A model generated the notes under the pieces. The model was given only the letters and a program-made list of their open reading frames with translations. It was not told the DNA's origin and searched no databases. A program made the position numbers and the translations under genes. A DNA stretch of 64,000 nt from a virus. Taxonomy: Duplodnaviria > Caudoviricetes. This document shows, in pieces, positions 3,230-62,528 of this stretch (position 1 is the first letter of the stretch; each line of letters starts with the position of its first letter). The stretch spans positions 1 through 64,000 of IMG/VR virus record IMGVR_UViG_3300031673_000017; one strand, written 5' to 3'.

Positions 3230-3230
3230 A

Positions 3231-3638
3231 TTAAAAATTACTCTTCATAATATAAGCATGGGTTTTAAATCCCCATACTCTTTCTATAGCTTCTGGATTC
3301 CGTTCAGTTTCAAATCTTATTTCATGAATATTAAATTCTTTTATTGCCCATTGTTTAATCATATCGATAGCTATTTTACCATACCCTCTTCCACTTCCGG
3401 GTTTAGACCATGCTTGAGCAAGCCAAACATATTCTCTATTATCCATTAGCCAACTAATAGCGAATCCATGTATTTCATTATTCTCAAAAATAATAGCAAC
3501 AAAAATCTCTTCTGGAACTGCTACCATTATTTCAAAAAGTTCTTTAGCAATTATATCACGAGTAAAAGCACCATCTTCAGTAAAAAACTTGCGCAGATGT
3601 TTTATAATTGCTGGATCTCTGGCTCTTTTAATTTTCAT
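3231..3638 (-). CDS. GNAT-fold (acetyltransferase-like) protein in the tail-tip module
   Basis: IHGFAISW...YVWLAQAWSKPGSGRGYGKIAIDMIKQWA...IRFET...WGF follows the GNAT motif A pattern (x-R-G-x-G then a helix). Confidence 0.6.
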   Translation of the reverse strand: MKIKRARDPAIIKHLRKFFTEDGAFTRDIIAKELFEIMVAVPEEIFVAIIFENNEIHGFAISWLMDNREYVWLAQAWSKPGSGRGYGKIAIDMIKQWAIKEFNIHEIRFETERNPEAIERVWGFKTHAYIMKSNF

Positions 3639-3644
3639 TAGTTA

Positions 3645-3998
3645 TTAGCCCATTATCTGTGTTGCTTTTAAATGACCAAACCACACTACATTAGGGGCAG
3701 CAACGTATTTTTTTCCAAAAAGAACTTGAATAGGACGGCCCTCTTCTGCTGTTGGGATATCAAATTGTTCTAAAGTTACTGGCCTTAATTTAGCAGGTTG
3801 TTTTGGCTTTGGTGCTAATAGCATAGAAAGTGCTATCATTATAGCCACTTGTACTATAAAATTCAAAATTGCCAATTGAGGTGTACCATCTTCGACAACT
3901 GGTTTAGGACTTGTTAGTATGTCTAAGAATAATACTACTGCCAGTATTTGAAGCAATATTTTAAGCGGCTTAGATTTTATTTTTTTAAGTGTAAACAT
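3645..3998 (-). CDS. Small tail-tip assembly protein
   Basis: C-terminal FDIPTAEEGRPIQVLFGKKYVAAPNVVWFGHL motif and position between the BR0599-like and tail-tip genes; two hydrophobic N-terminal segments. Confidence 0.7.
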   Translation of the reverse strand: MFTLKKIKSKPLKILLQILAVVLFLDILTSPKPVVEDGTPQLAILNFIVQVAIMIALSMLLAPKPKQPAKLRPVTLEQFDIPTAEEGRPIQVLFGKKYVAAPNVVWFGHLKATQIMG

Positions 3999-4996
3999 TA
4001 CATTACAGCATCACCAGTAAATGGATTCTTATCTGGCAAATATGGCTGCCCTCCATAATTTAATTTATTTGCAAATTTATCTTTACAAGTTGCTTTTAAG
4101 TGATCACAACCTGCCCATGCCCTAAATGTATCTCCTGCTGAAATTGCTGATACAGATCTTGATATTTTTATTTCAGTGCCTGAATGATAGACAATCTTTT
4201 GTAAGCAGCTTCCATTGTCTGTTTTAAAAATACCGCCAAGGAACCATCCATCTGCTTTAGAGCTAAAAATGGTTGCGTCTATAGTCGTTCCGCTTATTGA
4301 ATTAATAGTTCCATCCACATAATATAATGGATTAGTTTTAGATATTGTGCACCAAGTAGAATAAAGTGCAAGGCCACAATTGCGTTGGAATTTTCGCATT
4401 AAGCCAAATCGTTTTAGACTGCTTATTTTTAGGCCTAATAATATAATAACTTTTTTAGATAGGAATTTTACACCTTGCAAATATCCTCTCCAATATGTTG
4501 CATAGGAATCAGCATGCCTCCTATATATTGTTAGCCTGACGGTTCCCTCTATTGGCTCACTAATAAAATTTCTGACAAATGGATTAGATAAATGCACTTC
4601 TACTTCTAATCTCGTCTTTAACGAGTTTAAATCTAATACAATATCACCTCTCTTAATTAATTCTGCAAGATATGTTCTACCGTCATGGACAATATTGTAA
4701 TCTGTACTTGTATAAGACCAAAACTCAGCCCCCTCATCTTTATCAAAAAGATAAAGTTCGACAGGCTGCCCATCTTGAACACTTTGCTCATCGAGAAGGT
4801 AATTCTCAAAAATAAATGTAACGCTGGATGAACTGGAGTTTCCAGAAACATTACAAGCTATAAGAATCCAGAAACTAAACAGACTATTAGCATCAGAAAT
4901 ACTGGAAATAGCTCCTTCTAATCCGAGTTGAGCGTTAAGATAACCATTAGCATTAGAGCCTTCATCAACAGAACTAATTATATTAACGTCCGCCAT
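3998..4996 (-). CDS. DUF2163 / phage BR0599-family baseplate hub protein with N-terminal repeat extension
   Basis: PVELYLF...WSYTSTDYNIVHDGRTYLAELIKRG...FQRNCGLALYSTWC...GWFLGG...AWAGCDHLKATCKDKFANKLNYGGQPYLPDKNPF; the first ~45 aa are two S/I/G repeat units. Confidence 0.85.
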   Translation of the reverse strand: MADVNIISSVDEGSNANGYLNAQLGLEGAISSISDANSLFSFWILIACNVSGNSSSSSVTFIFENYLLDEQSVQDGQPVELYLFDKDEGAEFWSYTSTDYNIVHDGRTYLAELIKRGDIVLDLNSLKTRLEVEVHLSNPFVRNFISEPIEGTVRLTIYRRHADSYATYWRGYLQGVKFLSKKVIILLGLKISSLKRFGLMRKFQRNCGLALYSTWCTISKTNPLYYVDGTINSISGTTIDATIFSSKADGWFLGGIFKTDNGSCLQKIVYHSGTEIKISRSVSAISAGDTFRAWAGCDHLKATCKDKFANKLNYGGQPYLPDKNPFTGDAVM

Positions 4997-7900
4997 TATG
5001 AACCCTCATAAAATTAGTTTTGCATTCATTTCTGTTAGCATATTGCCAATTTATTTGAATACTATCAGATGTTAGCCTACATTTATCGACAAAACAAATC
5101 TTACAGTCTCCGCTCACTACTGGGTTAGCTAAACCTAAATTAGTGTTAAAACTAATCCTTTCCTCATTAGCATCAATTTCAACAATAGCTTTAATCTTTC
5201 TTATAATTAAAACGCCTGTCGTCGTGAAGTAAAATCCAATATAAGTTCGTAGTGCGTTAAATCCCATGTTCGTAGCGAGTTTAATATTTTCAATTTTAAC
5301 AGATGTATCTGTTGTTTCAATATCATCTGTTTGTGTTACATCACTACGAAAAGTTGGAATAATAATTGTTTTTTGTCTCCCACTTAGAGAATGTAGAAAC
5401 TTCCTGAAATTCCAACAAGCAACTTTATTATCATTAAAAAACTTATGACTTTGAGATAAGAAATTAAAGTTGCTGCTACTCTCTACTTTAAAAATACCAG
5501 TTTCAAAATCTGTAATTAGAATATCGCCATCACTATCTTCAGAATGTGTATCATCCATAAATGCAGGCGTATCTAATACTTCATAACCATCATAAATTGT
5601 ATTTGGAACATAATCAGTAAACTCAACATTATTATAAACTGCAAAAGTTAAGTTGACAACAGATGTTTCTGAGTTATATCTTTCTTTTTTGCTTGATGCG
5701 ATTAAATATGCAGTTCTTACAGGCATAATATACTTAATACCAGTATAAGAATTTAACATCGAGTAACTTAAATTTAAATTGGAATCTGTTTTTGTATCAA
5801 TAACAACTACTTCATATTCAGTCGCTGACTTCCAAACCATAGCTTTACTATCGTTTCTAAAATCAGCGTTTGTCGTATCTATATTTTCTATAGATTCATC
5901 TTTAGCGTTAATATCTGCAGTATGCTCAACGTATTCTGACCATATTGGGAGTAACCAAGTCAATTTCTGCCATGTATGAATAATAGAGTCAAACCAAGTG
6001 TTTTCTTTATTAGTGTTTAAAATTAATCTCAAATTAAATAGTTGTCTTGGTGTCTGGCGTATTTTTATTCGCTGTTCCGATCCATCATAAGCATTTAATA
6101 TACTCGTCTTCCATTCTAACGTTTCAACAATACTATCTTGTGGCCTCCAGAATAAAGTCGCTGCTTCAAAATCCGGTACGATGGCTAAATAATTTGATGT
6201 ATCTGGGAGATTTGAAACTGCAGTTATTGAGCCAATTAAACTAATTAATTTTGCAACTCGTCCAAGAAAAGAAATTCCATTTGTACTGTTGCCTATTAAT
6301 TGTGTTAAAACATCTAAGAATCCAGAAGTGCTCGAAGTGCTCGCAATAAATCCAGTTAAATCAGTTAAAACATTTAATGAACTTAAAGATGCTGCAATTC
6401 CAGAAATTTCAACAATGCTACTTCCCATTCCAGGTTGAGAATCAAAAGAACATATAGCACCAGCGACTTCTGTAATAGAACTTATTATGTTTTTATCAAT
6501 ATTAGTTTCACTTACAGTGGAAGCCCCATTTGTACTTTCACCGATTAATTGATTTAAAACATTTAAGATTCCAGAAGTATTAGAAATGCTCGTAACAGAG
6601 CTTATTAAGTTGGTTAAAATATTTAATGAACCAACTGAACTTGTTATTATTGCAATAGAACCATTTAATTCGGACTCAAGATAACCAATAACATCTGCGA
6701 TTTCTGAAACATAACCATTTAATTCTAATTCGAGTTCTAATAAACCTATGGAGTTGGAAATCGCAACAGCGGAGCTTATTATCTCGACTTCAGCAGTTGA
6801 TAATAAAGAACCGATTATGCTGGAAATCGCAGTTGTAGAACTATTTAAACTTTGCTCAAGTTCTGAAGAACCTGTGATGTTGGAAATCGCAACAGCGTAG
6901 CTTATAAATTCTGATTCGAGTCCTAAAGAACCAATGATGTTGGAAATCGCAGCAGCTGAACTTATAAATTCTGATTCGAATTCTAAAGAACCTGTGATGT
7001 TGGAAATCGCAGCGGCTGCACTTATTAATTCTGATTCGAATTCTAAAGAACCAATGATGTTGGAAATAGCATCAGCGGAACTTATTAATTCTGATTCGAA
7101 TTCTAAAGAACCAATGATGTTGGAAATAGCATCAGCGGAACTTATTAAACTTTGTTCAAGTTCTAAAGAACCTGTGATGCTTATAGTTACAGCAACAGTT
7201 CCACTTATTGCCTTAGTTTCAAACTCTAAAGAACCAGCGACATTTGTCGTGGCTATAACAGAACTAATTATTTCAGATTCAAGTTCTAAAGTGCCTGATG
7301 CGGTTAATGTTGCTGTTGTAGAACCAACAATTTCTGTTTCTGCAAAACTTAAAGAACCTTCAGCACCAGAAACTCCTGCAGAAGAACCAACGAAAGGTAA
7401 TATAAAACCTGTTGCTATTTTTACGTAATCGACGTGGCTTATTTGGTTAGCAGTTGTCTGGCCATACTGAGCCAGAGATGTAAGTCCACCGGGAAAAACT
7501 GCTTCTTTACTACACGGAATAGCACTACCTACTTTTTCCCAGTTATGAGTAGAGTCCTTCAGGTACACATCACAAACACCATCACCATCACCAACCGACC
7601 CAAAAGTTACAAGAAATCTCCATATCTGCCATTCTGCACTTCCCCCCTGTTTGACTAAATCAGTCCCTACTTCAGTATAGCCGGAATCTGTGTCATTTAT
7701 AAACAGTCCGTCTGAACAGAATATTACGCTAAAATATTCATCCGCTTGGAAGCAATTAAGATTAAGAAAGTCGGCGTTGGCCCTTGTCCCAGCTACATCG
7801 TGGTAGGTTTTTATTTCATACGTAAAAGTATTAGGAAAACTGCCTATATCTCTGGCACGATAAGCGTAGTTTCCCAAACCTACAGAGCCGGAAACAAACT

Positions 7901-8006
7901 GGAATTGTCCTGCGGGGTTAACTGAACTCACGCCATTTCCAACATCCCCATCGGTCCAGTCGGAAATATCAGAACAATCTTCATCGAGTAAATCCCAAGT
8001 AGCCAT
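4983..8006 (-). CDS. Distal-tail (Dit-like) virion protein fused to an N-terminal lectin-like beta-sandwich and ~20 tandem 20-aa repeats
   Basis: C-terminal ~400 aa: LFWRPQDSIVETLEWKTSILNAYDGSEQRIKIRQTPR...WLLPIW...FLHSLSGRQKTIIIPTF...ICFVDKCRLTSDSIQINW. N-terminal ~200 aa aromatic beta domain ending ISHVDYVKI. Central ISSADAISNIIGSLEFESEL repeats. Confidence 0.75.
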   Translation of the reverse strand: MATWDLLDEDCSDISDWTDGDVGNGVSSVNPAGQFQFVSGSVGLGNYAYRARDIGSFPNTFTYEIKTYHDVAGTRANADFLNLNCFQADEYFSVIFCSDGLFINDTDSGYTEVGTDLVKQGGSAEWQIWRFLVTFGSVGDGDGVCDVYLKDSTHNWEKVGSAIPCSKEAVFPGGLTSLAQYGQTTANQISHVDYVKIATGFILPFVGSSAGVSGAEGSLSFAETEIVGSTTATLTASGTLELESEIISSVIATTNVAGSLEFETKAISGTVAVTISITGSLELEQSLISSADAISNIIGSLEFESELISSADAISNIIGSLEFESELISAAAAISNITGSLEFESEFISSAAAISNIIGSLGLESEFISYAVAISNITGSSELEQSLNSSTTAISSIIGSLLSTAEVEIISSAVAISNSIGLLELELELNGYVSEIADVIGYLESELNGSIAIITSSVGSLNILTNLISSVTSISNTSGILNVLNQLIGESTNGASTVSETNIDKNIISSITEVAGAICSFDSQPGMGSSIVEISGIAASLSSLNVLTDLTGFIASTSSTSGFLDVLTQLIGNSTNGISFLGRVAKLISLIGSITAVSNLPDTSNYLAIVPDFEAATLFWRPQDSIVETLEWKTSILNAYDGSEQRIKIRQTPRQLFNLRLILNTNKENTWFDSIIHTWQKLTWLLPIWSEYVEHTADINAKDESIENIDTTNADFRNDSKAMVWKSATEYEVVVIDTKTDSNLNLSYSMLNSYTGIKYIMPVRTAYLIASSKKERYNSETSVVNLTFAVYNNVEFTDYVPNTIYDGYEVLDTPAFMDDTHSEDSDGDILITDFETGIFKVESSSNFNFLSQSHKFFNDNKVACWNFRKFLHSLSGRQKTIIIPTFRSDVTQTDDIETTDTSVKIENIKLATNMGFNALRTYIGFYFTTTGVLIIRKIKAIVEIDANEERISFNTNLGLANPVVSGDCKICFVDKCRLTSDSIQINWQYANRNECKTNFMRVHNGGR
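6841..7200. repeat. 60-bp coding tandem repeat, 6 well-aligned units with degenerate copies on both sides
   Basis: Consecutive 60-nt lines align (cttattaattctgattcgaattctaaagaaccaatgatgttggaaatagcatcagcggaa); 7021-7080 and 7081-7140 are identical. Confidence 0.95.
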
Positions 8007-8076
8007 TTTAGTCCTTAACTATGTTCTATTCACTTTCAAACTAACCGGCGAATAATGAACAATTAACTTGATTATC

Positions 8077-9372
8077 TTAGCCTATACTTTCAGCCAATTG
8101 TTTTCTAACATCATCTAATTCTACTGGTTTCGGACGACGAATCCAATAGTGACATCTTGCGATGTGATTTCCGCTTCTTGCTGTTAGCTTGAATATACTT
8201 CGCAGATGTTTTCTTTGATATTGCTCCTCTTCGCTTCTACCCGCATCGCATACTATAACATGATCTGATACTTGCGACGCTATTTGAATTGCTGCCTCTT
8301 TTCCAATTCCACCTTTTAACTTTGGTTCAGGTCCATCAATGAAGCAAAGATCGAATTCTTTATGTCCTCGCGGATTATTGTCCGCGAAATTTATTGATGT
8401 TTTCAATTCTTCAGGAGTAGTATGGCCATCCCAAAGTTTAATAGTAAGATTATTTTTATCAGTGCATCTCGCTCTGATTATTTCTGCGTGATTTGGATTT
8501 GTTTCGTAACTTATTACTTCATTTTCTTCTGATAAAAGTAACGAAGAAAGCCCAGAACCAAATTCAAGAATTCGTAGTTGTTTATTTGTTTTAATTTTTT
8601 CAATCTGGTCATTAATAAAATGCCAGTCTTTCATTGTTATATGATAGTCACCCCAGAACATACCATATCTGGAATTAGATTTATCAAAGTAGTTAATAGA
8701 ATCCCAACTATCAAGTTCATTCCAACCAATAGTTTTATAATGTTCACATCGCCGATGTGTTGTAGTATAAACTTTAAATCCAGCACTCGTTGCTTTGCGA
8801 CAAAATGCAAAATCAGTTCCATAAGCTATTACACCATCTTCATCGAACTCGCAATGAAACGGAGCTTTTAATACTTCTAAAACTTTTCGCTTTATTAAAA
8901 TACAACCTGTCCCAACAATATCAACTTGGAGCATGTCAAACATATCATCCATAGCATTCAAATCTACAGCCATATACCCAACACCGTCAATATGTTTAAC
9001 ATAAGCTGTCCAAACCATTAAATCTCCTGGGCTTGCAACTAATGCAGGACTTCCAATAATGTCCATATTTGCTCTGACTAATTCACAAGGATTATGTAAT
9101 GGAACTACATCATCATCTATCATTAAAAGGAAATCGCAATTTGTTTTAAGAAATCGTTTCACTACCATATTACGATTACTTGAGATGGGATTAGCCCAAG
9201 TCTTCATTGGATTTTCCCAGATAAGTTCAATTCCTTCTGTTCTTCGCATTGCAGGGATAACTGTTGCAATAATTTCCCGCCTTAATTTTCCACTATTAAG
9301 AATTGCTAAATATACTTTTTGAGTTTTATTTGCAATGTTATTTTCGCCTTGGTTTATAATTTTATCCGCCAT
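8077..9372 (-). CDS. GT-A/GT2-like glycosyltransferase fused to a class I SAM methyltransferase
   Basis: N-half: SSNRNMVVKRFLKTNCDFLLMIDDDVVP...VDIVGTGCILIKRKVLE...GTDFAFCRKA. C-half: ILEFGSGLSS...FDLCFIDGP. Start placed at the ATG at 9372 (MADKII) after GAGGAG rather than the track start 9441. Confidence 0.8.
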   Translation of the reverse strand: MADKIINQGENNIANKTQKVYLAILNSGKLRREIIATVIPAMRRTEGIELIWENPMKTWANPISSNRNMVVKRFLKTNCDFLLMIDDDVVPLHNPCELVRANMDIIGSPALVASPGDLMVWTAYVKHIDGVGYMAVDLNAMDDMFDMLQVDIVGTGCILIKRKVLEVLKAPFHCEFDEDGVIAYGTDFAFCRKATSAGFKVYTTTHRRCEHYKTIGWNELDSWDSINYFDKSNSRYGMFWGDYHITMKDWHFINDQIEKIKTNKQLRILEFGSGLSSLLLSEENEVISYETNPNHAEIIRARCTDKNNLTIKLWDGHTTPEELKTSINFADNNPRGHKEFDLCFIDGPEPKLKGGIGKEAAIQIASQVSDHVIVCDAGRSEEEQYQRKHLRSIFKLTARSGNHIARCHYWIRRPKPVELDDVRKQLAESIG

Positions 9373-9448
9373 TTTAAGTCTCCTCATCAAAAAAGAATTT
9401 CGCCATACATACCCTGCCCATCGCCGCCAGGATACATACAATTAAAAA

Positions 9449-9859
9449 TTAGTCAAGGGTGATGTCCAAATCGCCAGTGTCAAACTTCGGTGTGTCGCCT
9501 GTCTGGACGCTTTTGCTTACGGTTAACGCACCATAAGCCAGCATATTTCCAACAGTCGCCGCATCACAAATTGCGAAGTCTGTAATCTTTCCCCAGCTTG
9601 TGGTTGCTTGCGGGAAAGTAATGGCCTGCGAATTCTCAGTTGCACCAGCACCAGCACAAGCGTCCCATGTTTGACAAATTACACGAGCATAACCACCACC
9701 ACTTGGCTCAGTGATTGTGGTTCCAGTCATAGTGTCTAAGACTGTCACTGTACAAAGTGCGACGTACTTGTCGGGCACTGCCATGGCGTTATTTCCAGCA
9801 CCTGTGCTAAAAATGTGTTGCAATAATGCACCTTCTAAATAATTACTAAAACTACCCAT
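9449..9859 (-). CDS. Small beta-rich tail-fibre-type structural protein (paralogue 1 of 3)
   Basis: MGSFSNYLEGALLQHIF...YVALCT...EPSGGGYARV...ITFPQATTSWGKITDFAICDAATVGNMLAYGAL...GDTPKFDTGDLDITLD; a family common in tail modules of environmental phages. Start after GAAAGGA. Confidence 0.7.
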   Translation of the reverse strand: MGSFSNYLEGALLQHIFSTGAGNNAMAVPDKYVALCTVTVLDTMTGTTITEPSGGGYARVICQTWDACAGAGATENSQAITFPQATTSWGKITDFAICDAATVGNMLAYGALTVSKSVQTGDTPKFDTGDLDITLD

Positions 9860-9918
9860 AATAAATCCTTTCAAAAGGAGGAATAAAATATTAAAGTCAC
9901 GTGACTGACTTTACAACA

Positions 9919-10473
9919 CTATATTAAATATTGTTCTAATTTTGTGATTCTGGTTTGCAATCTTTTTATTTCTGATTCTGTAGAGTGTGTATTTGATTTT
10001 CTTTTTCTTTCTTCCGAAAACTTTTTTCCTAAGTGGGCTTCTCTCATTTTCTTCTTTGTTTCTTCCGAAACGGGGCTGAATTTTTTCCCTTTAAGTGCTT
10101 GCCTTATTTTTTCCTTGTGCTCTTTTGAAAGAGGGTTTTTTCTGCCTCTTACATTTTCTTTTTGATTTTCAGTCCATTTATAGCCACTCACACCCTCGCC
10201 ACCATTTGTTAAATTATATCCATTAGGAACTAAAGAATCAAATTGCCTAATAAACTCAATTTCTTTTTGTTTTACTTCTTCGAGATTTGCAGTTCTAAAA
10301 ATAATCTGTGACTCAAAACATTCTTTTCCATATTTACGAATAGCATTATGAAAAGCTGATTTATCTTTAGCCCAACAATGAACATGCCATCGTCTTTTAG
10401 GATTTGCAGACCATCCAATATATGGCTTTCCAGTTACTAAACAAATATGAATATAAACATAATAATATTTCAT
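9919..10473 (-). mobile_element. Free-standing GIY-YIG homing endonuclease with NUMOD3-like repeats
   Basis: YYVYIHICLVTGKPYIGWS...FHNAIRKYG...EIEFIRQF...NGYNLTNGGEG, then SKEHKEKIRQALKGK / SEETKKKMREAHLGKKFSEE. Confidence 0.9.
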
Positions 10474-10477
10474 TTAA

Positions 10478-12805
10478 TTATCCAACAACATCTTGAATTT
10501 CATTAGCATTACGCCTCATTATATTTACTACGGTTCGTTCGCCATCACCAGTGCTTAAATATTCTTGAACCATCGAGTAATCCATCACGTTGATTATTTT
10601 TATTGGTGTCTTGCTGCTACCATTGTCGCCTTCAGTTCTTATACCAAGCCGTCCTTGATTGTCTCTTCCTAACGGCATTATTGCTTCTTTTCCGGCTTCT
10701 CCACCTAATCCAATCCCGCCGTTTGACATTGGAAAAATTGTAGGGCTTGCTAAAATATCGCCTTTTGCAAAAGGAACTATAGAGCCATTGCTAAATATAT
10801 TCCCCTTCGCACTTGCTCCCCATGTTCCTGCACCAGCACCAGCACCAGCACCAGCAGCACCAGCACCAGCACCAGCACCAAAAATACCAGCAATTCCGCC
10901 ACCAATACCTAACATTAATTTTACTGATTGGAGCATTAATTCTTGAGCAATCATATCTGCTGCAAGTTGTGCGAAAGATGCTCCAATACTTGCAAAAACT
11001 GAATCCATAGCATCACTGAGACTTTCACCTTCAGTAATCATGTTTTTAAAAGCAGAAGACAAACTTGCTTCTGTTGCATCACCAACACCACCAAGCCCAT
11101 CTAATATAGCCTTTTGCCTATCTGCTTCATATTCCAAAAGGTCATCATAATATCTTGTAGCATCTGATTTCTGAGCTTTTTGATATGCTAATGCTTCATC
11201 TGAAGCTATCTTCATTTCTGTATCAATTTCGCCCTTTTTAGCGGAATACCATTGGTCTAAAAGTTCTTTATCTTTGATGAATGTTGCGTAATCTTCCTTT
11301 TCGTAGTTAAGAAGTTTAAGCCGATTTTCATAACTGGCATTTCCCATCTCACCAAGATCATCATACATCCTTCGGTATGCTTCTGTTTGATCCCTTGCTG
11401 CCTGCTTAATTTTTTCTGCTTCTTCTGCTGCACCAGTGTCTACTTTCGCTGTTGGGATTTGTATAGGCCCAACAAATTCCTTTTCTGCTATATCTTTCAT
11501 TACTGATTTCTGAATTTTAGCAAATTCTTTAGCAGCGTTTACGAGATCGTCAGCCTCCTTTTTCCTACTTAGATTAAATTTTGTAATTATATCTGGCTCT
11601 TCAAGTTGGGCATTTATTTCAGCTTGTGCATTCTTTTGAGCATTGACCATCGATGTCCAACCAAATTTCCACTCTTTAGCAAGCAATGACATACCTTGAA
11701 GCCAAGTATTAACTTGCGGTGCGATTCCCTCACCCAAATCACGTTTGATACTAATCCATAACTCTCTGTTTTTAGCAAGTGCTATCTCAGTTGTAGCAGC
11801 ATTCTTTCGATATGCTATTTCTGCCAGCCCCGCAGCGTTCAATGCTTTTTTATGGTCACCAATTAAAGCTACTACGTTCTTTCTTGTAGCTTCTGATCCG
11901 AGAAGAGCACGAACATTAGGGAATATTGCTGCTGTCTCTTCAATAGTAGCGTTTGCAAGGAGTTGCATTGCTCCAGTCATGCCAATGGTACGCAACGTAT
12001 TTGAGTTTAATTCTAATCCGAATATCTTAGCAGCAGCAACTGCTTCTTTCGTGGGGCTAACAAATCCTGTAAGCATTGCCTTTAATGCAGTCATTGCCAT
12101 GTCTGCATTAATACCCATTCTCGTCATAGTCGCAATGGATGCTGAAACTTCTTCTAACGATAATCCGGCCGTCGCTGCGATAGCTACAACTTTTCCTATA
12201 GAGCCGCCTAATTCTGCAAAGGTTAATTTGCCACCTTTTACAGTAGCGAACAAAACATCACTTACCTTTGTAGCGTCCCCGGCTTCCATACCATAAGCAT
12301 TCATAACAGTTGTAAGTGTATCAGCAGCAACTGCTGTTGTAGTAAGGCCACCTATTGCTGCTTTAGATGCTGCTCTAAGAACACCTACAGCATCTGCTGC
12401 ACCAACAGATGCAGATAGAATATCATATAAACCTTTAGAGAGTGTTTCAGTTGTTTGCCCAAATTCAACTGCTAAACTTGCGAGCTGTGCTTTGTAACCA
12501 GGGAGAAAGTCCATCGTCTGATCATCGAGCATGGTTGAAATATTTGCAAGTTGTGTTTCAAAAGCTGCAAATTCTTTTACTGATGATACTGCAAATCTTA
12601 ATCCTTTATATACTGCAGCAAGTCCAACCATACCTACAGCGAAAGTCTTCATTTGTGTGCCGAGACTTTTGAAAGATTTCTCGTTAGACTTTACACCAAC
12701 ATCGACTTCTTTCGCACTGCGTTTAATTTTCTTAGCAGCATCGTCGAATTGTTTAGCTCCATATTGGGCACGGAGGGCGTTAATGGCAACATCAAGTGAA
12801 GGAAT
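10478..12805 (-). CDS. Tail tape measure protein (TP901-type core, lambda-like C-terminus), probable ATT start at 12805
   Basis: FETQLANISTML...TVKGGKLTFAELGGSIGKV core; C-terminal AKGNIF...PFAKG...GEAGKEAIMPL. The frame is open 51 codons upstream of the track ATG (12652), to ATT CCT TCA CTT GAT GTT GCC ATT AAC (IPSLDVAINA). Confidence 0.9.
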   Translation of the reverse strand: MPSLDVAINALRAQYGAKQFDDAAKKIKRSAKEVDVGVKSNEKSFKSLGTQMKTFAVGMVGLAAVYKGLRFAVSSVKEFAAFETQLANISTMLDDQTMDFLPGYKAQLASLAVEFGQTTETLSKGLYDILSASVGAADAVGVLRAASKAAIGGLTTTAVAADTLTTVMNAYGMEAGDATKVSDVLFATVKGGKLTFAELGGSIGKVVAIAATAGLSLEEVSASIATMTRMGINADMAMTALKAMLTGFVSPTKEAVAAAKIFGLELNSNTLRTIGMTGAMQLLANATIEETAAIFPNVRALLGSEATRKNVVALIGDHKKALNAAGLAEIAYRKNAATTEIALAKNRELWISIKRDLGEGIAPQVNTWLQGMSLLAKEWKFGWTSMVNAQKNAQAEINAQLEEPDIITKFNLSRKKEADDLVNAAKEFAKIQKSVMKDIAEKEFVGPIQIPTAKVDTGAAEEAEKIKQAARDQTEAYRRMYDDLGEMGNASYENRLKLLNYEKEDYATFIKDKELLDQWYSAKKGEIDTEMKIASDEALAYQKAQKSDATRYYDDLLEYEADRQKAILDGLGGVGDATEASLSSAFKNMITEGESLSDAMDSVFASIGASFAQLAADMIAQELMLQSVKLMLGIGGGIAGIFGAGAGAGAAGAGAGAGAGTWGASAKGNIFSNGSIVPFAKGDILASPTIFPMSNGGIGLGGEAGKEAIMPLGRDNQGRLGIRTEGDNGSSKTPIKIINVMDYSMVQEYLSTGDGERTVVNIMRRNANEIQDVVG
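10830..10880. repeat. (GCACCA)4-GCA-(GCACCA)4 microsatellite encoding a Gly-Ala run in the tape measure protein
   Basis: Read directly from the sequence; encodes GAGAGAGAAGAGAGAGA. Confidence 0.95.
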
Positions 12806-12823
12806 TTTAATAACCTACCTTTT

Positions 12824-13183
12824 CTAAATCTTTATATGTTTTTCTCGCATAAATTTAATATATTCTTCATCCATGATGCGAATAAAGTGGGCAACTTCTT
12901 GTCGCCTTTCGACATTAAAAATTCCATTTAAATTTAACCAAGATTCTATTTCAGAAAATAGAATATATCCATAGTTAGTTACACTTCTTAGGCCAGACTT
13001 TGTATTTATTACAATAATCTGATTGTTTCTTGATGAAGATAAAGCAGCAAAAGCATCCCAAATAAAAAGTAAATCATTATGTAGTTTTGGCTTTGGATGT
13101 TTCCCTTCTTTTCCAACTGCTTTCAACTTACTATACCAGACTCCCCACTCTATATTCCAGAGTAGGAAGTTTATTAGTTTTTT
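12824..13183 (-). CDS. Tail assembly chaperone, frameshifted C-terminal part (gpT-like)
   Basis: The -1 frame after the slippery site reads KKLINFLLWNIEWGVWYSKLKAVGKEGKHPKPKLH...IWDAFAALSSSR, continuous with track ORF 12824..13126. Confidence 0.75.
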   Translation of the reverse strand, partial: KKLINFLLWNIEWGVWYSKLKAVGKEGKHPKPKLHNDLLFIWDAFAALSSSRNNQIIVINTKSGLRSVTNYGYILFSEIESWLNLNGIFNVERRQEVAHFIRIMDEEYIKFMREKHIKI

Positions 13184-13578
13184 TCCGAGTCTTTAACTAA
13201 ATCTTTTTTATACTGGTCTGCATTTTCTGATATTGCAACGACGAAAGTATGAAAATCCTTCAACTCTGGATCTCTAAAAAATTCCATTGCTTTATCAGGA
13301 GAATACGGTATGGTTGCACCATTATTATCTTCAATATTTTTCCAATCTAAAAGAACAGTGTGTGCTCGCACTTCTAAAAGAACATCGGAGAGTTGTTCAA
13401 TTGTTAGTTTATCGCCTCTTATATCTTTCTTTTTTGGTTCAACAAGATTACGAAGTAGCTCTTGATATTTTGGGTTACGAGCACGAGCAATTTTTAACTT
13501 GATTCCTTCTGCGAAATCAACCCAAACTCCGCCTTCTTCTTTCTTAACATCTGTCTTAATACTTTCGATGTTCGCCAT
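13174..13578 (-). CDS. Tail assembly chaperone (gpG-like)
   Basis: Lies between tail tube and tape measure; EEGGVWVDF...LKIARARNPKY...VLLDWKNIED...IPYSPDKAMEFF. Confidence 0.85.
   Translation of the reverse strand: MANIESIKTDVKKEEGGVWVDFAEGIKLKIARARNPKYQELLRNLVEPKKKDIRGDKLTIEQLSDVLLEVRAHTVLLDWKNIEDNNGATIPYSPDKAMEFFRDPELKDFHTFVVAISENADQYKKDLVKDSEKN
13177..13183 (-). promoter_or_regulatory. Programmed -1 ribosomal frameshift heptamer A AAA AAC
   Basis: Minus strand TCG GAA AAA AAC TAA: an X XXY YYZ heptamer immediately before the chaperone stop codon, in the canonical position upstream of the tape measure gene. Confidence 0.8.
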
Positions 13579-13649
13579 TTTTAAGTCCTCCTCGAAATTG
13601 TTAATAATTAAAGTGTTATACTACTTTATTTTTAATATTCATGTAAGAA

Positions 13650-14873
13650 TTAAGCTATGCCTGTTAAACTACCAGCAAGTATTACTACAGCAGCAATGCT
13701 ACCTTCAAAATATTCTGAAACTGGGAATCTTGCAATACGAATTGATATTTTTTCAGTTGCATCCATATATGCATGGAACTCAAAATCACCAATAACATCA
13801 GTATTTATACCACCAGCATTTCTCGTCCCATCGATAATTTTAACAGATGGAAGTTCAATAACATAACCATTTCCATCTGCATCCCTCACAGCAAGAACTA
13901 TCGATGTAACATCCTGGTCTAAATATTTATCGAATAAATCTGCTGTTAATAAATGAAGTGATATTGATCCAGTTATCTCAACAGTTCCAAACCCCATACT
14001 CGCGACGCCGAGAGTTCCAACTTGTAATCTTGTTCTTAAATTATTATTAATGTTCAGCGAAAGACTAAGAATTGCAACGTCTTCTAAATTCTCTAAAATA
14101 TCTGTGACATGATTAGCCCCAGTCATTATTACTGAAGTAGTCTCGTCGTCATATCCACTTCCTGCAGAAGCTGTAAGCGATTCTTCAGCAGAACCCATAA
14201 AACCGAAATTTCCTTTTATGATTCCATCTGCTGGAATTTCCAACGACATTGTATTTATACTCATTCCTTTAAGTAATGATAAAACATTTGATATGTCTTT
14301 GAAATCTTTTTCAATATTGTAACTCACAAGAGTTATTCCATTAGTGATTTGTGAACCCATCTTAACTGTTATTGCACTGCCTGCAGCTTCAGTTACTAAA
14401 GTCCCATTCGCTAATACTAATTTAGCTGATGTCTTACTACTTATTTTAAAGAAGCCGTTATTGGCCGTGGTAGAAAATCCTGATACATAAATCCATTGAC
14501 CTGTTACAAAACTACCAAAACCACTACTGGAATCATTTAATGAATTATCAGTAGATGATACACTAATAGTTGAACTGTGTGTTATCCTAACTTCTGTTGA
14601 CCAGCCAGAATCATCAAGTAGTGCTGCTTTAAGAAAGTCGTCATGTGAACCATAACTCAATTCGAAATCAATGGCACCACTTGCACTTAATCCTATTCTT
14701 GCTACATCAGAAATTTGCCTATCACTGCGAATTTCTTCACTTATCGTTGTAGCCATATCTTGTTTCAACGATTCACTATTATATCTAAGAATTTGTAAAT
14801 TGGAACCTGTTTCTTTAACTCCAAAATCACCTTCTTCAACATAGGCTAATTGTACTCTGTTAGCATCAGACAT
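13650..14873 (-). CDS. Major tail tube protein with an inserted beta domain and one C-terminal repeat unit
   Basis: MSDANRVQLAYVEE...LRYNSESLKQ...SEEIRSDRQISD...SGAIDFELSYGSHDDFLKAAL...YNIEKDF...INTMSLEI...ITGSISLHL...YVIELPSVKI. Confidence 0.85.
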   Translation of the reverse strand: MSDANRVQLAYVEEGDFGVKETGSNLQILRYNSESLKQDMATTISEEIRSDRQISDVARIGLSASGAIDFELSYGSHDDFLKAALLDDSGWSTEVRITHSSTISVSSTDNSLNDSSSGFGSFVTGQWIYVSGFSTTANNGFFKISSKTSAKLVLANGTLVTEAAGSAITVKMGSQITNGITLVSYNIEKDFKDISNVLSLLKGMSINTMSLEIPADGIIKGNFGFMGSAEESLTASAGSGYDDETTSVIMTGANHVTDILENLEDVAILSLSLNINNNLRTRLQVGTLGVASMGFGTVEITGSISLHLLTADLFDKYLDQDVTSIVLAVRDADGNGYVIELPSVKIIDGTRNAGGINTDVIGDFEFHAYMDATEKISIRIARFPVSEYFEGSIAAVVILAGSLTGIA

Positions 14874-14931
14874 TTTTACGCTCCTTTTTTATTTTTTATT
14901 TGTGTTATTATTGTTTTTATTTTATTGGCTA

Positions 14932-15468
14932 TTAATTATTCCATAAATAACCAGTAACAGAATAAAGTTCAGAATCTGAGGAACCTTTTAATTCTGGTTG
15001 TGTGTCAAAAACACAAGTATTAGCTGTTGCAACAACACAGCTGCCGCCTAATCGCACTGTGTTCAATCTGATACAGGATATATCAGAAGCTTCTGTAATA
15101 GAACTAATTAAGTTCTGTTGCGAATCAAGATTACCATTAGCTATTCCAGAAACTGTTGTTATAGAACTAACTATTTCAGATAGGAGATCAAACCCACCAG
15201 AAACATCTGCTATTATAGCAGCTAATCCATTTAGTTCAGCTTCAAGTTCTAAAGCACCTGCTGAGTTTGCTGCTTCTGCTACTGAACTTATTAACGCTGT
15301 TGTCTCTCCGAGTATGCCTAAAAGTCCAGCAACACCCGCACTGTTAACAGCGGAAGCACCACCAAAATTAATGTAATTAGAATATGTACTTAGCCTATAA
15401 ATTGCATTTTCAACTTTTCTAATCGCGTCCACGATCATTTTAGCTATTTCGTTACGTTGGTCACCCAT
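14932..15468 (-). CDS. Stand-alone protein made mostly of the ~20-aa S/I/G repeat
   Basis: LISSVAEAANSAGALELEAELNGLAAIIADVSGGFDLLSEIVSSITTVSGIANGNLDSQQNLISSITEASDISC; same repeat as in 4983..8006 and 16334..17728. Confidence 0.7.
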   Translation of the reverse strand: MGDQRNEIAKMIVDAIRKVENAIYRLSTYSNYINFGGASAVNSAGVAGLLGILGETTALISSVAEAANSAGALELEAELNGLAAIIADVSGGFDLLSEIVSSITTVSGIANGNLDSQQNLISSITEASDISCIRLNTVRLGGSCVVATANTCVFDTQPELKGSSDSELYSVTGYLWNN

Positions 15469-15525
15469 TTTACGTCGCCTTTCTTATTTTTTGGTTTGTT
15501 TAATTTTTAAATTATTTCTTAAACT

Positions 15526-15921
15526 TTATTCATCATAATGAAATGGACATGTTACTGTCACTTGATAATTATCATCCACTCTTCCATTTTTAGCGATTCT
15601 CGGAACATTAAAAATAACTGAGTTATCAACATCTATTGACCTAAATGCAGTTGCTATTCTATCAGCAGCTACAAGAAGATTACTCATTCCTAATCCTACT
15701 TCTTGTTTAATTCTTACAGTTAAATTTCCGATATTACGATAGGAGTTTATACCTATTTCTTTTTGTTGTGAATCTCCAAAATCAATTAATACCTCACACC
15801 AAAGCCCAGATGTTGGGGTAGCACGTGGATCGTCGTCATAACGGACAACATATCCATAGACTACAGCAACAGCAGCAGCAAAATATGTATTAATAGAATT
15901 AGCTAAACTTTGAAAACCCAT
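15526..15921 (-). CDS. Tail terminator protein
   Basis: Position before the tail tube gene; VRYDD...WCEVLIDFGDSQQKEIG...YRNIGNLTVRI...YQVTVTCPFHYD. Confidence 0.7.
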   Translation of the reverse strand: MGFQSLANSINTYFAAAVAVVYGYVVRYDDDPRATPTSGLWCEVLIDFGDSQQKEIGINSYRNIGNLTVRIKQEVGLGMSNLLVAADRIATAFRSIDVDNSVIFNVPRIAKNGRVDDNYQVTVTCPFHYDE

Positions 15922-16328
15922 TATTTAATTCCTGATAGCCACGCTGCCATCTCTGTTAAAGTTATTTCTAAAAATCCTTCTGGATGCTGAGGACTTCTGC
16001 GAACATATTCTAAATATTCGATATATTCCAAATTATTGGTAATATGTACTAACGAAAATGGAGGTATTGTTGCTAATTTTGAAGCTCCACTATTGATAGC
16101 AAAATCAGCCATCGCACCTTCAGTACCTTCTACGATAAGAGATGAGTTTGCTGCTCTACCAATTTCAACTTGCCAGTTACCTCTTGCACGTCCTGTATCG
16201 ACCGGAGTTCTAAGAACTATTCTTTTTAATACTTCAAGACATACCTGCTTATAAAATTTATTCATGTCTCCATGAATTCTTTTGGATGCAACATCAAGTG
16301 CGACGTTAAAATTTATTAAGTTTGACAT
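15921..16328 (-). CDS. HK97 gp10-like tail completion / neck protein
   Basis: RTPVDTGRARGNWQVEIG...ITNNLEYIEYLE...PEGFLEITL. Confidence 0.85.
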   Translation of the reverse strand: MSNLINFNVALDVASKRIHGDMNKFYKQVCLEVLKRIVLRTPVDTGRARGNWQVEIGRAANSSLIVEGTEGAMADFAINSGASKLATIPPFSLVHITNNLEYIEYLEYVRRSPQHPEGFLEITLTEMAAWLSGIK

Positions 16329-16333
16329 TAGTT

Positions 16334-17728
16334 TTAGTCACCTGCTTCTACCTCAATAGTATAAAGTAAAATTCCGGTTGAATCTTTTATTTCAGTAATT
16401 CCAGTTACAGTCCATACTTTTGATGCTGAACCGATTATTAATTTCAATCCGACTTTGACATCAAAACGCAAATTATAATTAACGATTCCTGATAGCCCAT
16501 TACCCGATGTTATTAATTCTGCTGGCTTGTAACCTTCTCGATTTTTGTATATTGGAATTATTTTTACTGGAAAATCAACAACATGACTTAAAGTAGTTTT
16601 ATTAGTGCTTGGGTTAAAAGTAGCATCGGGATACGTTCGAACAATTGCGTCAATTCCTTTTCTCTGCAACATATCATACCATTTTTTAGCTGTTGTATTT
16701 TGGCGAAGATGATATAAAATATCTAAGTTGCCAGACGCACTACTTAAAACTACCGACGAGCTTATTAAATTTTGCTGTGCATCAAGAAATCCTATGACAC
16801 CAACAACTTCTGTAATATAACTTATTAAATTAGTTAAAACATCGAGAAAACTTAAAGATGCAGCGACACTTGGAATCTCAACGACATTGCTTCCAATGCC
16901 TGGTTGAGAATCAAGAGAGCTTACTGCCACTGATATTTCTGCTATAGAACTTACTAATTCTGAATCCAGTTCTAAATAACCAACAGTGCTTGCAACTTCT
17001 GAAATATTGCTGACCAATGTAAGCCATAAACTAAGAGAACCAGAAGTACCAGAGTTTACAGTTGCTTCTGAACGGACTAATGTAAACAAAAAATTAAATT
17101 CGCCTGTAACACCTGAAATTATATCTGTTGATCCACGAAGTACAACAGTAGTTGCTAACGTAAACATAGCCCCTGATATATAAGAATCTTCTGTTATTAT
17201 ACTTGCTAAGTATTTTTCATTTCTTAATGTCCCAGAAGTATTAGAAACAATTATTACTTCGCTTGCCACTGGAACAATTAAAGAGCCGTAAGCGTCAAAA
17301 ATTGTAAATGCTGAACCAGATCTACCCCATATTATGCCTTGAAGATCCTCTGTTTGATTTATAACTACTCTTATAAATCTGCCTGTTTTTGTCGTTGCCA
17401 ATTCTTCTACGAAAATTTCAGTATCTTGCCAAGATGATATGCCTGTTGCAACAGCAGATCCCCAATTACCATTCGTTTCAGAAACATAAATATCCACATC
17501 AATAGGATCAAAATCGCCAAAATAAGAACGTCCTTTGAATTTTGTTAGATTATAGAATTTACCATCGTTCTCACCAAGATCAACTACGAAAAAATGTATG
17601 CCACCATCATGGTCTGCATCGTGTTGCCAAACATCTGTTCCACCAAGAGCTTCTGAAAGCGTTCGCATATCATCAGAACCACAACTGCTCTCATAATTTG
17701 AACTATTTATTCCTAACCAGTCTGACAT
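16334..17728 (-). CDS. Head-closure (stopper)-like domain fused to an N-terminal discoidin/F5-8C-like domain and ~9 repeat units
   Basis: N-terminal WQH...FFVVDLGE...VDIYVSETNGNWG...GRFIRVVI; central repeats; C-terminal ~120 aa MLQRKGIDAIVRTY...FNPSTNK...VWTVTGITEIK...LLYTIEV, in the stopper position after the adaptor. Confidence 0.65.
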   Translation of the reverse strand: MSDWLGINSSNYESSCGSDDMRTLSEALGGTDVWQHDADHDGGIHFFVVDLGENDGKFYNLTKFKGRSYFGDFDPIDVDIYVSETNGNWGSAVATGISSWQDTEIFVEELATTKTGRFIRVVINQTEDLQGIIWGRSGSAFTIFDAYGSLIVPVASEVIIVSNTSGTLRNEKYLASIITEDSYISGAMFTLATTVVLRGSTDIISGVTGEFNFLFTLVRSEATVNSGTSGSLSLWLTLVSNISEVASTVGYLELDSELVSSIAEISVAVSSLDSQPGIGSNVVEIPSVAASLSFLDVLTNLISYITEVVGVIGFLDAQQNLISSSVVLSSASGNLDILYHLRQNTTAKKWYDMLQRKGIDAIVRTYPDATFNPSTNKTTLSHVVDFPVKIIPIYKNREGYKPAELITSGNGLSGIVNYNLRFDVKVGLKLIIGSASKVWTVTGITEIKDSTGILLYTIEVEAGD

Positions 17729-17943
17729 TAGTTAACCTTAAAGAATAAAATTAATAATGCGATGCCTAAATTAAACATTCCGGTTGCCCCTGCTGCTACG
17801 CAGACCAATGTTATTGCCCAATGATGTCGTAAATGATTGGTTTGATTAATAATCACAGTTCGCAATTTTTCTATAATTATAATGGACCGTTCCTCTTCTG
17901 TGAGATTTTTTAAGTCTTGATATTCTGGCAATGTATTTTCCAT
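17728..17943 (-). CDS. Small protein with a C-terminal transmembrane segment (possibly holin-like)
   Basis: Start MENTLP after GAGGT; C-terminal WAITLVCVAAGATGMFNLGIALLILFFK. Confidence 0.45.
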   Translation of the reverse strand: MENTLPEYQDLKNLTEEERSIIIIEKLRTVIINQTNHLRHHWAITLVCVAAGATGMFNLGIALLILFFKVN

Positions 17944-17944
17944 A

Positions 17945-18475
17945 TTAACCTCTTTCCAATTCAGTTGAACTAAACGAAGAGCCATTTATTATCCACCATG
18001 CAATTAGTTTCTCTGCAATGGTATATGTTTTTTCTGGGTTTTCTCCACTAACATATTCCCGTTCTTCTGTAATTGGGCCTATTACGTCTTTAGTCCTTTT
18101 TACTTTAGAATCATTTTGAAAATCTTCCAACAAAGTATCTCCTTCGATAACTTTTACAGCAAGATATGCACATGCTTGTTTTAGCTTTTCAGGTATTGTA
18201 TCTTCACTTATGTAATTATCATCTTCATCATACATCTCATAGCGTGGCCATTGAAGTCCTTGGTCTGCATCATATTTCCATCCGTCCCATGTATAATTAA
18301 GATCTAAATATCGAGTCGCTTGTCGAATAGCGTTCTCTTTTTCTGCTTGCGTTGCTGCTGTCCAATTTGCAGAATTACCGTAGTCTTCTGTTATTTGGTC
18401 TGCTTCAGAAACTTCAAGATAAGCATTTGAATCTGAATACGCTCCACCATCTTCTACTACGAATGTTGCTGTCAT
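17945..18475 (-). CDS. Head-tail adaptor (DnaT-like family)
   Basis: FVVEDG...SNAYLEVSEAD...AIRQATRYLD...WDGWK...QGLQWPR...IPEKLKQACAYLA...KDVIGPITEEREY. Confidence 0.85.
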   Translation of the reverse strand: MTATFVVEDGGAYSDSNAYLEVSEADQITEDYGNSANWTAATQAEKENAIRQATRYLDLNYTWDGWKYDADQGLQWPRYEMYDEDDNYISEDTIPEKLKQACAYLAVKVIEGDTLLEDFQNDSKVKRTKDVIGPITEEREYVSGENPEKTYTIAEKLIAWWIINGSSFSSTELERG

Positions 18476-53405: not shown

Positions 53406-53723
53406 TTAAACCATATCACCTTCAAATATTATTTTTAATTCGCCTATTGGAAAAGAGTATGAATAACCAATTTCAATAATAGGCATAGGTTTATAACGCT
53501 TAATATTACGTTTAGCATATTGTCTGCCGCCTACACGTTCACTACATAAAGCAAAATGAGTGATCTTTCCCCAGTCTGACTGAACTGTATTAAAAACGAC
53601 AAGATTACTATTAGATATACTATAATTTTTGTTAAAAGTCCATTGCTTTACAATAGCACGTGCGTAATCAGATTTTTTAACTTCACCATCTTTATTAAAT
53701 AATGCGACATAACAATTAGCCAT
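53406..53723 (-). CDS. Paralogue 2 of the small tail-fibre-type protein
   Basis: YVALF...DYARA...NSNLVVF...DWGKITHFALC...GYSYSFPIGELKI aligns with 9449..9859; start MANCY after GAGGAG. Confidence 0.65.
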   Translation of the reverse strand: MANCYVALFNKDGEVKKSDYARAIVKQWTFNKNYSISNSNLVVFNTVQSDWGKITHFALCSERVGGRQYAKRNIKRYKPMPIIEIGYSYSFPIGELKIIFEGDMV

Positions 53724-62171: not shown

Positions 62172-62528
62172 TTACTCCCTATCTAATAATGCACTTAATT
62201 CTATGTTCATTCGATTAGGCTCAAACCATATCTGAATACCTTCACTAACCGACACTCGCTCTGTTAATTTACCAGTAGCTAAAATATTTCCATCATGCAA
62301 CGAATCAAAGATACCAAAATGAGTTATTGTTCCCCAACTATTTAATGCTATTGGAAATTGAATTGCATCAATATTAGTTGCCATATCTCCATTTACGAAT
62401 AAATCACCAGGCCCCATCTCAATTCGATGGTAGTTTGTACTTTCTCGCTGAACCTCAACTAAACCAAATGTTGGAATTCCTGCCAATAATCCTCTTAGTA
62501 ATCCAATATAAATATAATTCATAGCCAC
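62172..62528 (-). CDS. Paralogue 3 of the small tail-fibre-type protein
   Basis: YIYIGLL...EV...NYHRI...TNIDAIQFPIALNSWGTITHFGIFDSLHDGNILATGKL...VSEG. Confidence 0.75.
   Translation of the reverse strand: MAMNYIYIGLLRGLLAGIPTFGLVEVQRESTNYHRIEMGPGDLFVNGDMATNIDAIQFPIALNSWGTITHFGIFDSLHDGNILATGKLTERVSVSEGIQIWFEPNRMNIELSALLDRE

Follow-up and report, generated by a model that had tools for sequence, protein, structure and literature searches.

A Gp80-family bead protein and a 20-residue repeat on several virion proteins point to rope-and-bead fibres in an uncultured siphophage

What purpose a repeat of about 20 residues serves when it is found on five different virion proteins of a single phage is the question raised by the virus record IMGVR_UViG_3300031673_000017, of which positions 1 to 64,000 were analysed here (referred to as the window). 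The window is part of a single contig of 76,669 bp with a G+C content of about 34%, all genes lie on the minus strand, and a siphophage virion module extends from position 2 to 23,864. An initial annotation had described the repeat in a protein resembling the distal tail protein (Dit), in a fusion of the stopper (head-closure protein, Hc1), in a stand-alone gene product, in the tail hub and in the tail tube, with gene coordinates that proved correct (Table 1), and had suggested that each repeat strand completes the fold of a small beta protein encoded in the same module. From the analysis reported here it is likely that the phage builds chain-like fibres, in which the small protein, a bead of the Gp80 family, is docked on ropes of 20-residue units. 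Strand complementation is supported because (i) the bead is a Gp80-family member, (ii) structures of relatives have been solved, (iii) rope and bead genes co-occur, (iv) one rope protein is fused to a Gp80 domain and (v) a complex prediction, graded as weak support, agrees with it. The proposed completion of the bead fold by a rope strand thus matches the mechanism solved for Gp80-family relatives, by analogy with which binding itself would take place here.

Judged by its sequence, the small protein is a clear full-length member of the Gp80 family. It matches the Pfam family Gp80 (PF23140, named 'Podophage GP4 fiber I protein gp80') with an expectation value (E) of 3e-33 and 115.3 bits at a gathering cut-off of 27, whereby profile positions 2-128 of 128 are covered. 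Among the entries of the PDB, chain a of 8JOU, which is GP4 gp80, is found by the single sequence (phmmer, E 3.2e-7) as well as by a profile of 61 bead homologues, the latter giving E 4.9e-17 over chain residues 1-136; the number of bead homologues found amounts to 311. Two more short Gp80-family genes reside among early and replication genes (53406-53756 and 62172-62528, both minus strand), encode proteins of 116 and 118 residues and score 32.7 and 48.5 bits against the Pfam cut-off of 27. The alignment of their products to the profile begins no earlier than about position 26 or 43, so that the N-terminal part is seemingly missing, and by analogy with the two bead types of phage A1002 they may serve as alternative beads.

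The repeat unit has the consensus L-x5-[LI]-x-[GS]-[ST]-[IV]-x-A-x-S-x-[IV]-x-G-x, and the register used for scoring (L-E-x-E-x-x-L-I-S-S-x-x-A-I-S-N-I-x-G-S) agrees with the pattern L-x-(S/G)-S-x4-S-x3-G-x-L given in the initial annotation. As iterative HMMER searches with single units returned 13 matches only, near-identical units being dominant and neighbours being merged, units were counted by score-matrix scans, using a window-only position-specific matrix built from units of three rope proteins only and a family-wide matrix built from 86 units of the window and ten related loci. The about 20 units claimed for the Dit-like protein were recovered as 18 units of at least 21 bits and two weaker in-register ones between residues 199 and 603 with the first matrix, and as 20 of 20 units of at least 11.7 bits with the second. 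Likewise, the about nine units claimed for the stopper fusion correspond to six strong and three weak in-register units, all nine of which reach at least 9.1 bits with the family-wide matrix. For the stand-alone gene, the earlier count of about seven was somewhat high, as four strong units were found at residues 53-133 and an extra one at residue 154 scores at chance level (8.1 bits). Both units expected at the hub N-terminus were detected (17.3 and 15.2 bits), and so was the one at the tube C-terminus, which lies at chance level with the window-only matrix (8.3 bits) and scores 16.4 bits with the family-wide matrix. The latter value makes it the top match among 16,457 positions in all other minus-strand open reading frames (ORFs), and no shuffle reaches 16 bits with this matrix. 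For the window-only matrix, 0.35 matches of at least 12 bits are expected by chance per 16,457 positions, as derived from shuffled sequences, and no such unit was found in the 16,457 positions of the other minus-strand ORFs.

Periodicity of the Dit rope is seen at the DNA level as a 60/120-bp period at 6721-7179 (Tandem Repeats Finder) and at the protein level as a lag-20 autocorrelation of 3.64. The ropes of the stopper fusion and of Dit are homologous and colinear, with 35% identity over 215 residues (E 5.5e-29), and since the odd positions of the unit are hydrophobic or small in the family-wide matrix, the unit looks like an extended strand of which one face is buried. A plus-strand ORF at 6934-7428 (164 residues), which has a 20-residue repeat of its own, was rejected as a gene, being the antisense mirror image of the Dit rope. 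The Dit rope found no match in 50,697 phage records by tblastn and the virion module found none among phages by megablast, and the Dit rope region alone gave noise only when compared with the PDB.

Rope and bead genes occur together. Their co-occurrence, which the initial annotation had put forward as a check, was found in loci chosen by the bead as well as in loci chosen independently of it (loci are designated by L, proteins by P numbers). Among 80 viral loci chosen by bead alignment, 23 possess an ORF of at least two units; in the closest of these loci the ORFs comprise 10-16 units, and in more distant ones the repeat protein is encoded by the gene directly after the bead gene. An independent sample of 80 loci was fetched by the adaptor Ad1, and the 26 with at least 9 kb downstream were used. 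Tandem units were identified in five of these 26, four of which have a bead gene inside the locus, and in the fifth (L094) the same contig has the bead gene about 110 bp past the locus cut. The remaining 16 bead-less loci have no tandem units. Five bead-positive loci of this sample, which are from more distant phages, have no matrix matches, and each of them encodes a protein of about 590 residues with a 42-residue period near the bead gene (L124 16204-17952, L126 16592-18373, L138 15272-17053, L139 16585-18336, L140 16561-18345). These matrix-negative proteins are encoded 1-2.5 kb upstream of the bead gene, and their N-terminal repeat has a period of 42 residues composed of two 21-residue halves; they probably represent a divergent rope type. 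Autocorrelation gives 20 residues as the best internal period of the gene that comes after the bead gene in the GP4-like phage RPZH3 and in the myophage PVJ1, the family-wide matrix finding no units in either genome.

A profile search with the unit identified 481 proteins among 1.84 billion representatives, and the usual layout among the 150 best hits is a globular head of 150-400 residues, followed by 8-40 units and then by a short tail or a structural domain. In 57 rope proteins that were scanned, Pfam sees head domains or nothing, and the repeat is covered by no Pfam family. One of the 57, P0222, consists of a rope followed by a Gp80 domain (E 8e-30), thus joining rope and bead in one chain. 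Laminin_G_3 domains are present in 11 of the 57, others carry LamG_2, beta-helix, F5/8 type C, CBM_4_9 or C1q domains, and both distal heads of the phage described here, one F5/8 type C-like and one LamG-like, are consistent with this repertoire. A search for related loci returned none for the rope proteins P0137 and P0155 and two for P0153.

Chain-like fibres were first solved for GP4 in 2023, then for Bas63 in 2025 and for A1002 in 2026, and also for VP1 (PMC13730344, PMC12609058). Fiber I of the Ralstonia podophage GP4 comprises five gp80 dimers linked by a rope that is a protein of its own (PDB 8JOU), and this rope is interlocked with an immunoglobulin (Ig)-like collar at the neck (Zheng et al., J Mol Biol 2023, as cited in PMC13730344 and PMC12609058). 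The likeness to GP4 consists in the bead, which is of the same Pfam family and finds the solved chain by sequence, and in the 20-residue period of the gene after the bead gene in the GP4-like RPZH3; however, GP4 is a podophage with a separate rope, whereas here ropes are fused to Dit, Hc1, hub and tube, comprise up to 20 units and bear lectin-type heads. In the Pseudomonas podophage A1002, 11 gp40/gp41 dimers are arranged on the nozzle-rope protein gp39, every dimer and the rope together make up an augmented beta-sheet, and an Ig-like domain terminates the rope (PMC13730344). The main segment of the A1002 fiber-dock domain provides 226 residues for most of the 11 dimers (PMC13730344), which by a rough division of this one segment gives about 20 residues per dimer and thereby fits the unit size. 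Shared with A1002 are the fusion of a rope to a core tail protein, the globular end domain, a spacing of about 20 residues (per dimer there, per unit here) and presumably the docking by beta-sheet augmentation; A1002 differs in being a podophage with one rope type, that of the nozzle, and with two bead proteins which are both on the fibre, whereas this phage has one bead gene in the virion module and two short paralogues elsewhere. In the collar-whisker complex of the myophages Bas63 and Sf14, dimers wrap the N-terminal rope of the collar protein 'like beads on a string', and for Bas63 the rope was reported to complete the incomplete sandwiches of the whisker dimers (PMC12609058). Here too a neck protein is extended by a rope at its N-terminus, but Bas63 and Sf14 are myophages whose ropes hold only two dimers each and are anchored by an additional Ig-like collar protein and not by Hc1, and the distal binding domain is lacking.

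The nearest siphophage parallel is the baseplate arm of JBD30, whose Dit gp49 is a trimer with an N-terminal loop wrapping three gp47/gp48 heterodimers, which constitute the baseplate arms (8RK3; PMC11445458). The genes of gp47 and gp48 are located between tape measure and Dit, and the JBD30 stopper is a hexamer (PMC11445458). Dit core and hub of both phages are homologous in sequence, the genes of the (here presumed) dimers are situated between tape measure and Dit in both, and in both an N-terminal extension of Dit holds dimers or would do so; the differences are that JBD30 has three dimers on a loop of 74 residues, with neither a 20-residue repeat nor a lectin head. When the Gp80 profile was compared with the PDB, 8JOU was the only match and no JBD30 chain was found, so that gp47 and gp48 are no detectable relatives of the bead. 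The initial annotation had drawn its comparison with the neck fibre of the Anabaena myophage A-1(L), which turned out to be superficial. In this gp82-gp81-gp80 fibre, gp81 trimers are joined head to tail via N-terminal hairpins, with no threading rope (PMC10966104), and an A-1(L)-type fibre was therefore rejected as mechanism on the grounds of its description, given the Gp80-family bead and rope repeat present here. The bead-chain look, the neck anchor and the distal carbohydrate-binding module are alike, whereas the 'gp80' of A-1(L) shares only its name with GP4 gp80.

The initial annotation had further named a multimer prediction of bead and repeat as a check. Four beads together with Dit residues 281-340 gave an ipSAE of 0.52 (0.50, 0.58 and 0.52 in the runs) as against 0.01 for the best of three controls, which was graded as weak support; as like complexes have been solved, the pass may reflect likeness to them. 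The ipSAE mark applied is reached by 58 of 80 solved complexes and by 2 of 110 mismatched pairs, whereby only 7 of the 80 solved complexes, together with both passing mismatches, have values of at most 0.60. The runs agree in at least 90% of contacts, and the predicted local distance difference test score (pLDDT) of Dit 281-340 is at least 58 with the bead and 27 with the bead replaced. The suggested mechanism assumes that one bead dimer docks on roughly each 20-residue unit, that the rope strand completes the open beta-sandwiches of the beads and that the hydrophobic face of the unit would be placed in the bead groove. The 20 units between the LamG-like head and the Dit ring domain would then give about three baseplate fibres of 20 dimers, if Dit is trimeric, and about six neck fibres of nine dimers would result from the nine units that link the discoidin-like head to the head-closure protein, these copy numbers being taken from the trimeric Dit and the hexameric stopper of JBD30. 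Only short pieces would be formed on the two units of the hub, and the tube may carry one dimer per subunit. The lectin-type heads probably bind host surface glycans reversibly. Physical binding, the ratio of one dimer per unit, the copy numbers and the function in adsorption are inferred by analogy with the solved fibres.

Ropes are anchored in one reading frame to the Dit core and to the Hc1-type domain, with further units on hub and tube. In the Dit-like protein, the claim that the repeats link a core structural domain to a distal domain was borne out, as distal head, rope and core follow each other along the chain (Table 1). The core matches the JBD30 distal tail protein gp49 (8RK3_U) at E 1.9e-27, covering gp49 residues 184-544, which correspond to the ring-forming domains III-VI, and it also matches 8VJH_B, a 'Distal tail protein' of the PDB, at E 1.9e-11 (both phmmer) as well as phrog_1082 at E 2e-82. 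For the distal head no sequence match was obtained in Pfam or the PDB; among its nearest ESM Atlas clusters are those of a putative LamG domain protein and of a sialidase-like carbohydrate-binding module, with scores of 0.95-0.97, and a lectin fold of the LamG/concanavalin type is probably present.

At the neck, the distal head of the stopper fusion matches the Pfam family F5_F8_type_C at E 1.4e-4 (22.4 bits, below the cut-off of 28.2), and homologues of this head occur in the rope proteins P0231, P0158 and P0166. The C-terminal 124 residues have stand-alone homologues of 118-168 residues, two of which (62-68% identity), P0123 with E 5e-6 and P0122 with E 9e-4, find phrog_161, 'head closure Hc1'. 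As the gene is in addition positioned between Ad1 and Neck1, the stopper identity given in the initial annotation is supported, and sequence comparison supports Hc1 as the C-terminal domain. The Hc1 fusion is kept in L085 (661 residues). L086, L091 and L088 possess a bare Hc1 and a rope of 11-12 units that is fused to a duplicated paralogue of the tail terminator, beside a normal terminator. In L086 the adjoining terminator paralogues are encoded at 3095-6463 (1123 residues, behind a long rope) and 6454-6855 (bare, 134 residues), in L088 at 604-2322 (573 residues, behind a long rope) and 2313-2714 (bare, 134 residues); going by these gene structures, the putative neck fibre of L086 and L088 is anchored on the duplicated terminator rather than on Hc1. 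P0121 is an Hc1 with two units, and P0131 and P0232 have a terminator domain at the N-terminus. Comparison of the encoded proteins thus indicates that ropes move between neck proteins in the relatives.

The stand-alone rope protein combines a conserved N-terminal part of about 40 residues with 4-5 units (residues 53-133) and a C-terminal tail, and homologues at the same position are found in L085, L086 and L088. When predicted alone by AlphaFold2 (AF2) from a four-sequence alignment, it reached a mean pLDDT of 35 with no confident fold, which is a weak negative. For hub and tube, a restricted version of the rope-and-bead reading has to be weighed, according to which docking is true for Dit, neck and stand-alone gene, and the hub and tube matches are due to chance or serve another purpose, e.g., tube-tube contacts. 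The tube unit's score of only 8.3 bits with the window-only matrix fits this restriction, single units have little statistical power and no solved example of beads on a tube protein is known. Set against this are the rank of the tube unit above all 16,457 other positions and all shuffles with the family-wide matrix, and its position past the Phage_tube_2 domain (residues 5-368), which is conserved: five tube homologues have the unit at the same C-terminal spot (11.8-20.1 bits), though the local sequence has diverged. The solved hub homologues 8VJH_D and JBD30 8RK3_g begin at residue 66-70 of the hub of this phage, hence the first about 65 hub residues are a clade-specific N-terminal extension holding both units, and this extension, absent from the solved homologues, is kept in L002. 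The restricted reading is thus considered rather unlikely. Of the beaded fibres proposed earlier for neck, tube and tip, those at neck and tip are supported, while a single unit on the tube would result in a decoration, not a fibre. A more far-reaching idea is that the unit is a portable docking tag on any exposed terminus of a virion protein, whereby Gp80 dimers on every tube subunit would form a non-covalent coat of beads, perhaps carrying glycans added by the neighbouring transferase, along the whole non-contractile tail, and neck and baseplate would have their lectin-tipped fibres besides. This idea is regarded as doubtful, and to our knowledge a bead coat of that kind is present in no solved siphophage.

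Several points weigh against rope-and-bead fibres as outlined above. A profile of the rope has no match among PDB sequences at E up to 10, so the unit is not tied by sequence to a solved rope, and in RPZH3 and PVJ1 the likeness is one of periodicity only. Contig ends limit the co-occurrence tables, the grade of the complex prediction was weak, and the division of the A1002 segment is rough. The units of hub and tube are called from score and position only, the LamG-like head is a language-model lead and not an alignment, and the Hc1 assignment is transitive, the AF2 model of this domain (mean pLDDT 46.5) being too poor for a fold search.

Two explanations dispense with docking as the main role of the repeat. 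According to one, the repeats chiefly act as flexible linkers rich in Ser and Thr, which the neighbouring glycosyltransferase would glycosylate to give a mucin-like stalk, with bead binding being secondary or absent. Indeed, the units are rich in Ser and Thr, and the gene of the glycosyltransferase, which has a methyltransferase-like half, directly follows the Gp80 homologue here and in six relatives (L001, L002, L003, L005, L006 and L010). Yet a mere linker would not be expected to keep a strict period of 20 residues, conserved Leu, Gly and Ala positions and alternating hydrophobic residues across distant phages, and bead homology and the rope-Gp80 fusion indicate docking, which makes this explanation quite improbable. 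Docking and glycosylation are not exclusive either; from its position, the enzyme may modify the beads or the Ser/Thr-rich ropes. That the repeats instead fold by themselves into a fibre shaft of beta structure, either a trimeric beta-helix or a solenoid, the Gp80-like protein being an unrelated virion or head decoration protein, draws on the Gly/Ser/Thr/Val-rich repeats common in phage fibre shafts, on the annotation of the bead family as 'head protein' in PHROG and on the missing PDB match of the rope profile, but is most improbable, as the one or two units with which hub, tube and P0121 end cannot make a solenoid, co-occurrence and rope-Gp80 fusion are left unexplained, homologous beads were solved on ropes, and the rope alone gives no confident fold (pLDDT 27 for the 60-residue piece with an unrelated partner and 35 for the stand-alone protein, both weak negatives).

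The kind of mechanism proposed for the docking of beads on ropes is already known, and what is new here is the layout, i.e., the presence in a siphophage of ropes on Dit, stopper, hub and tube, with tips of the lectin type and with neck ropes that change their protein among relatives. The literature search yielded three podophages as well as Bas63 and Sf14, which are felixounavirus myophages, and each of these examples has a single rope type and between 2 and 11 dimers. No siphophage with a Gp80-type system was described in what it returned, nor was a phage with several rope-bearing virion sites, a unit on tube or hub, or a lectin-tipped rope of 20 units. The locus suggests that the Gp80 bead family also works in siphophages, that one phage can bear ropes at four or five virion sites and that, from one close relative to another, ropes switch between Dit, head-closure and terminator proteins. 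If so, the unit would be a general transferable docking tag, whereby the repeat number sets the fibre length and a swappable lectin-type head sets the specificity. For phage biology this offers a testable model for adding reversible glycan binding to the tail, and for engineering a short peptide tag by which a defined dimer could be brought to virion positions of choice.

Table 1. Features of the virion module, listed in transcription order (window positions).
Feature	Position	Strand	Basis or context
Major capsid protein	18926-20179	minus	virion module
Adaptor Ad1	17945-18475	minus	virion module, after major capsid
85-residue protein, hydrophobic C-terminus	17728-17985	minus	between Ad1 and Hc1 fusion
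464-residue neck (stopper fusion) protein	16334-17728	minus	
Neck distal head, residues 1-147, discoidin-like (F5/8 type C)	17288-17728	minus	weak Pfam match
Neck rope, 9 units, residues 148-334	16727-17287	minus	score matrices
Head-closure (Hc1, stopper) domain, residues 341-464	16334-16708	minus	position and stand-alone homologues
Tail-completion protein Neck1, then tail terminator		minus	between the 464- and 178-residue protein genes
178-residue stand-alone rope protein	14932-15468	minus	
Tail tube	13650-14873	minus	Phage_tube_2
One tube unit, residues 383-407	13653-13727	minus	C-terminal last 25 residues of the tube protein
Chaperones and tape measure		minus	after tail tube
GIY-YIG/NUMOD3 homing-endonuclease gene	9919-10473	minus	Pfam GIY-YIG, E 3.5e-8
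Bead protein, 136 residues	9449-9859	minus	Gp80 family (PF23140)
Glycosyltransferase, methyltransferase-like C-terminal half	8077-9441	minus	Glyco_tranf_2_3, E 3e-4, below cut-off
1007-residue Dit-like protein	4983-8006	minus	
Dit distal head, residues 1-198	7413-8006	minus	LamG/concanavalin-like lead
Dit rope, 20 tandem 20-residue units, residues 199-603	6198-7412	minus	score matrices, DNA period, autocorrelation
Dit ring-forming core, residues 604-1007	4983-6197	minus	phmmer against PDB, PHROG
BR0599/DUF2163 hub (upper baseplate) protein	3998-4996	minus	
Two hub units	4880-4996	minus	17.3 and 15.2 bits; N-terminus of the hub
GNAT acetyltransferase gene	3231-3638	minus	Pfam Acetyltransf_1, E 8.7e-6
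Two small genes, then large Phage-tail_3 protein		minus	after hub

The module listed in Table 1 belongs to an uncultured siphophage with a tail tip of the gene transfer agent (GTA)/JBD30 type. A scan for promoters and terminators gave no more sites than shuffled sequences. In GTA-type tail modules, a cell-wall peptidase takes the position between the hub and the large tail protein, and it is the GNAT acetyltransferase gene that is encountered between the hub and the large Phage-tail_3 protein here. The GIY-YIG/NUMOD3 gene separates the tape measure from the bead gene, which follows directly after the tape measure in the relatives L001 and L002. The position of the 85-residue protein between Ad1 and Hc1 is kept in L085, L086 and L091.

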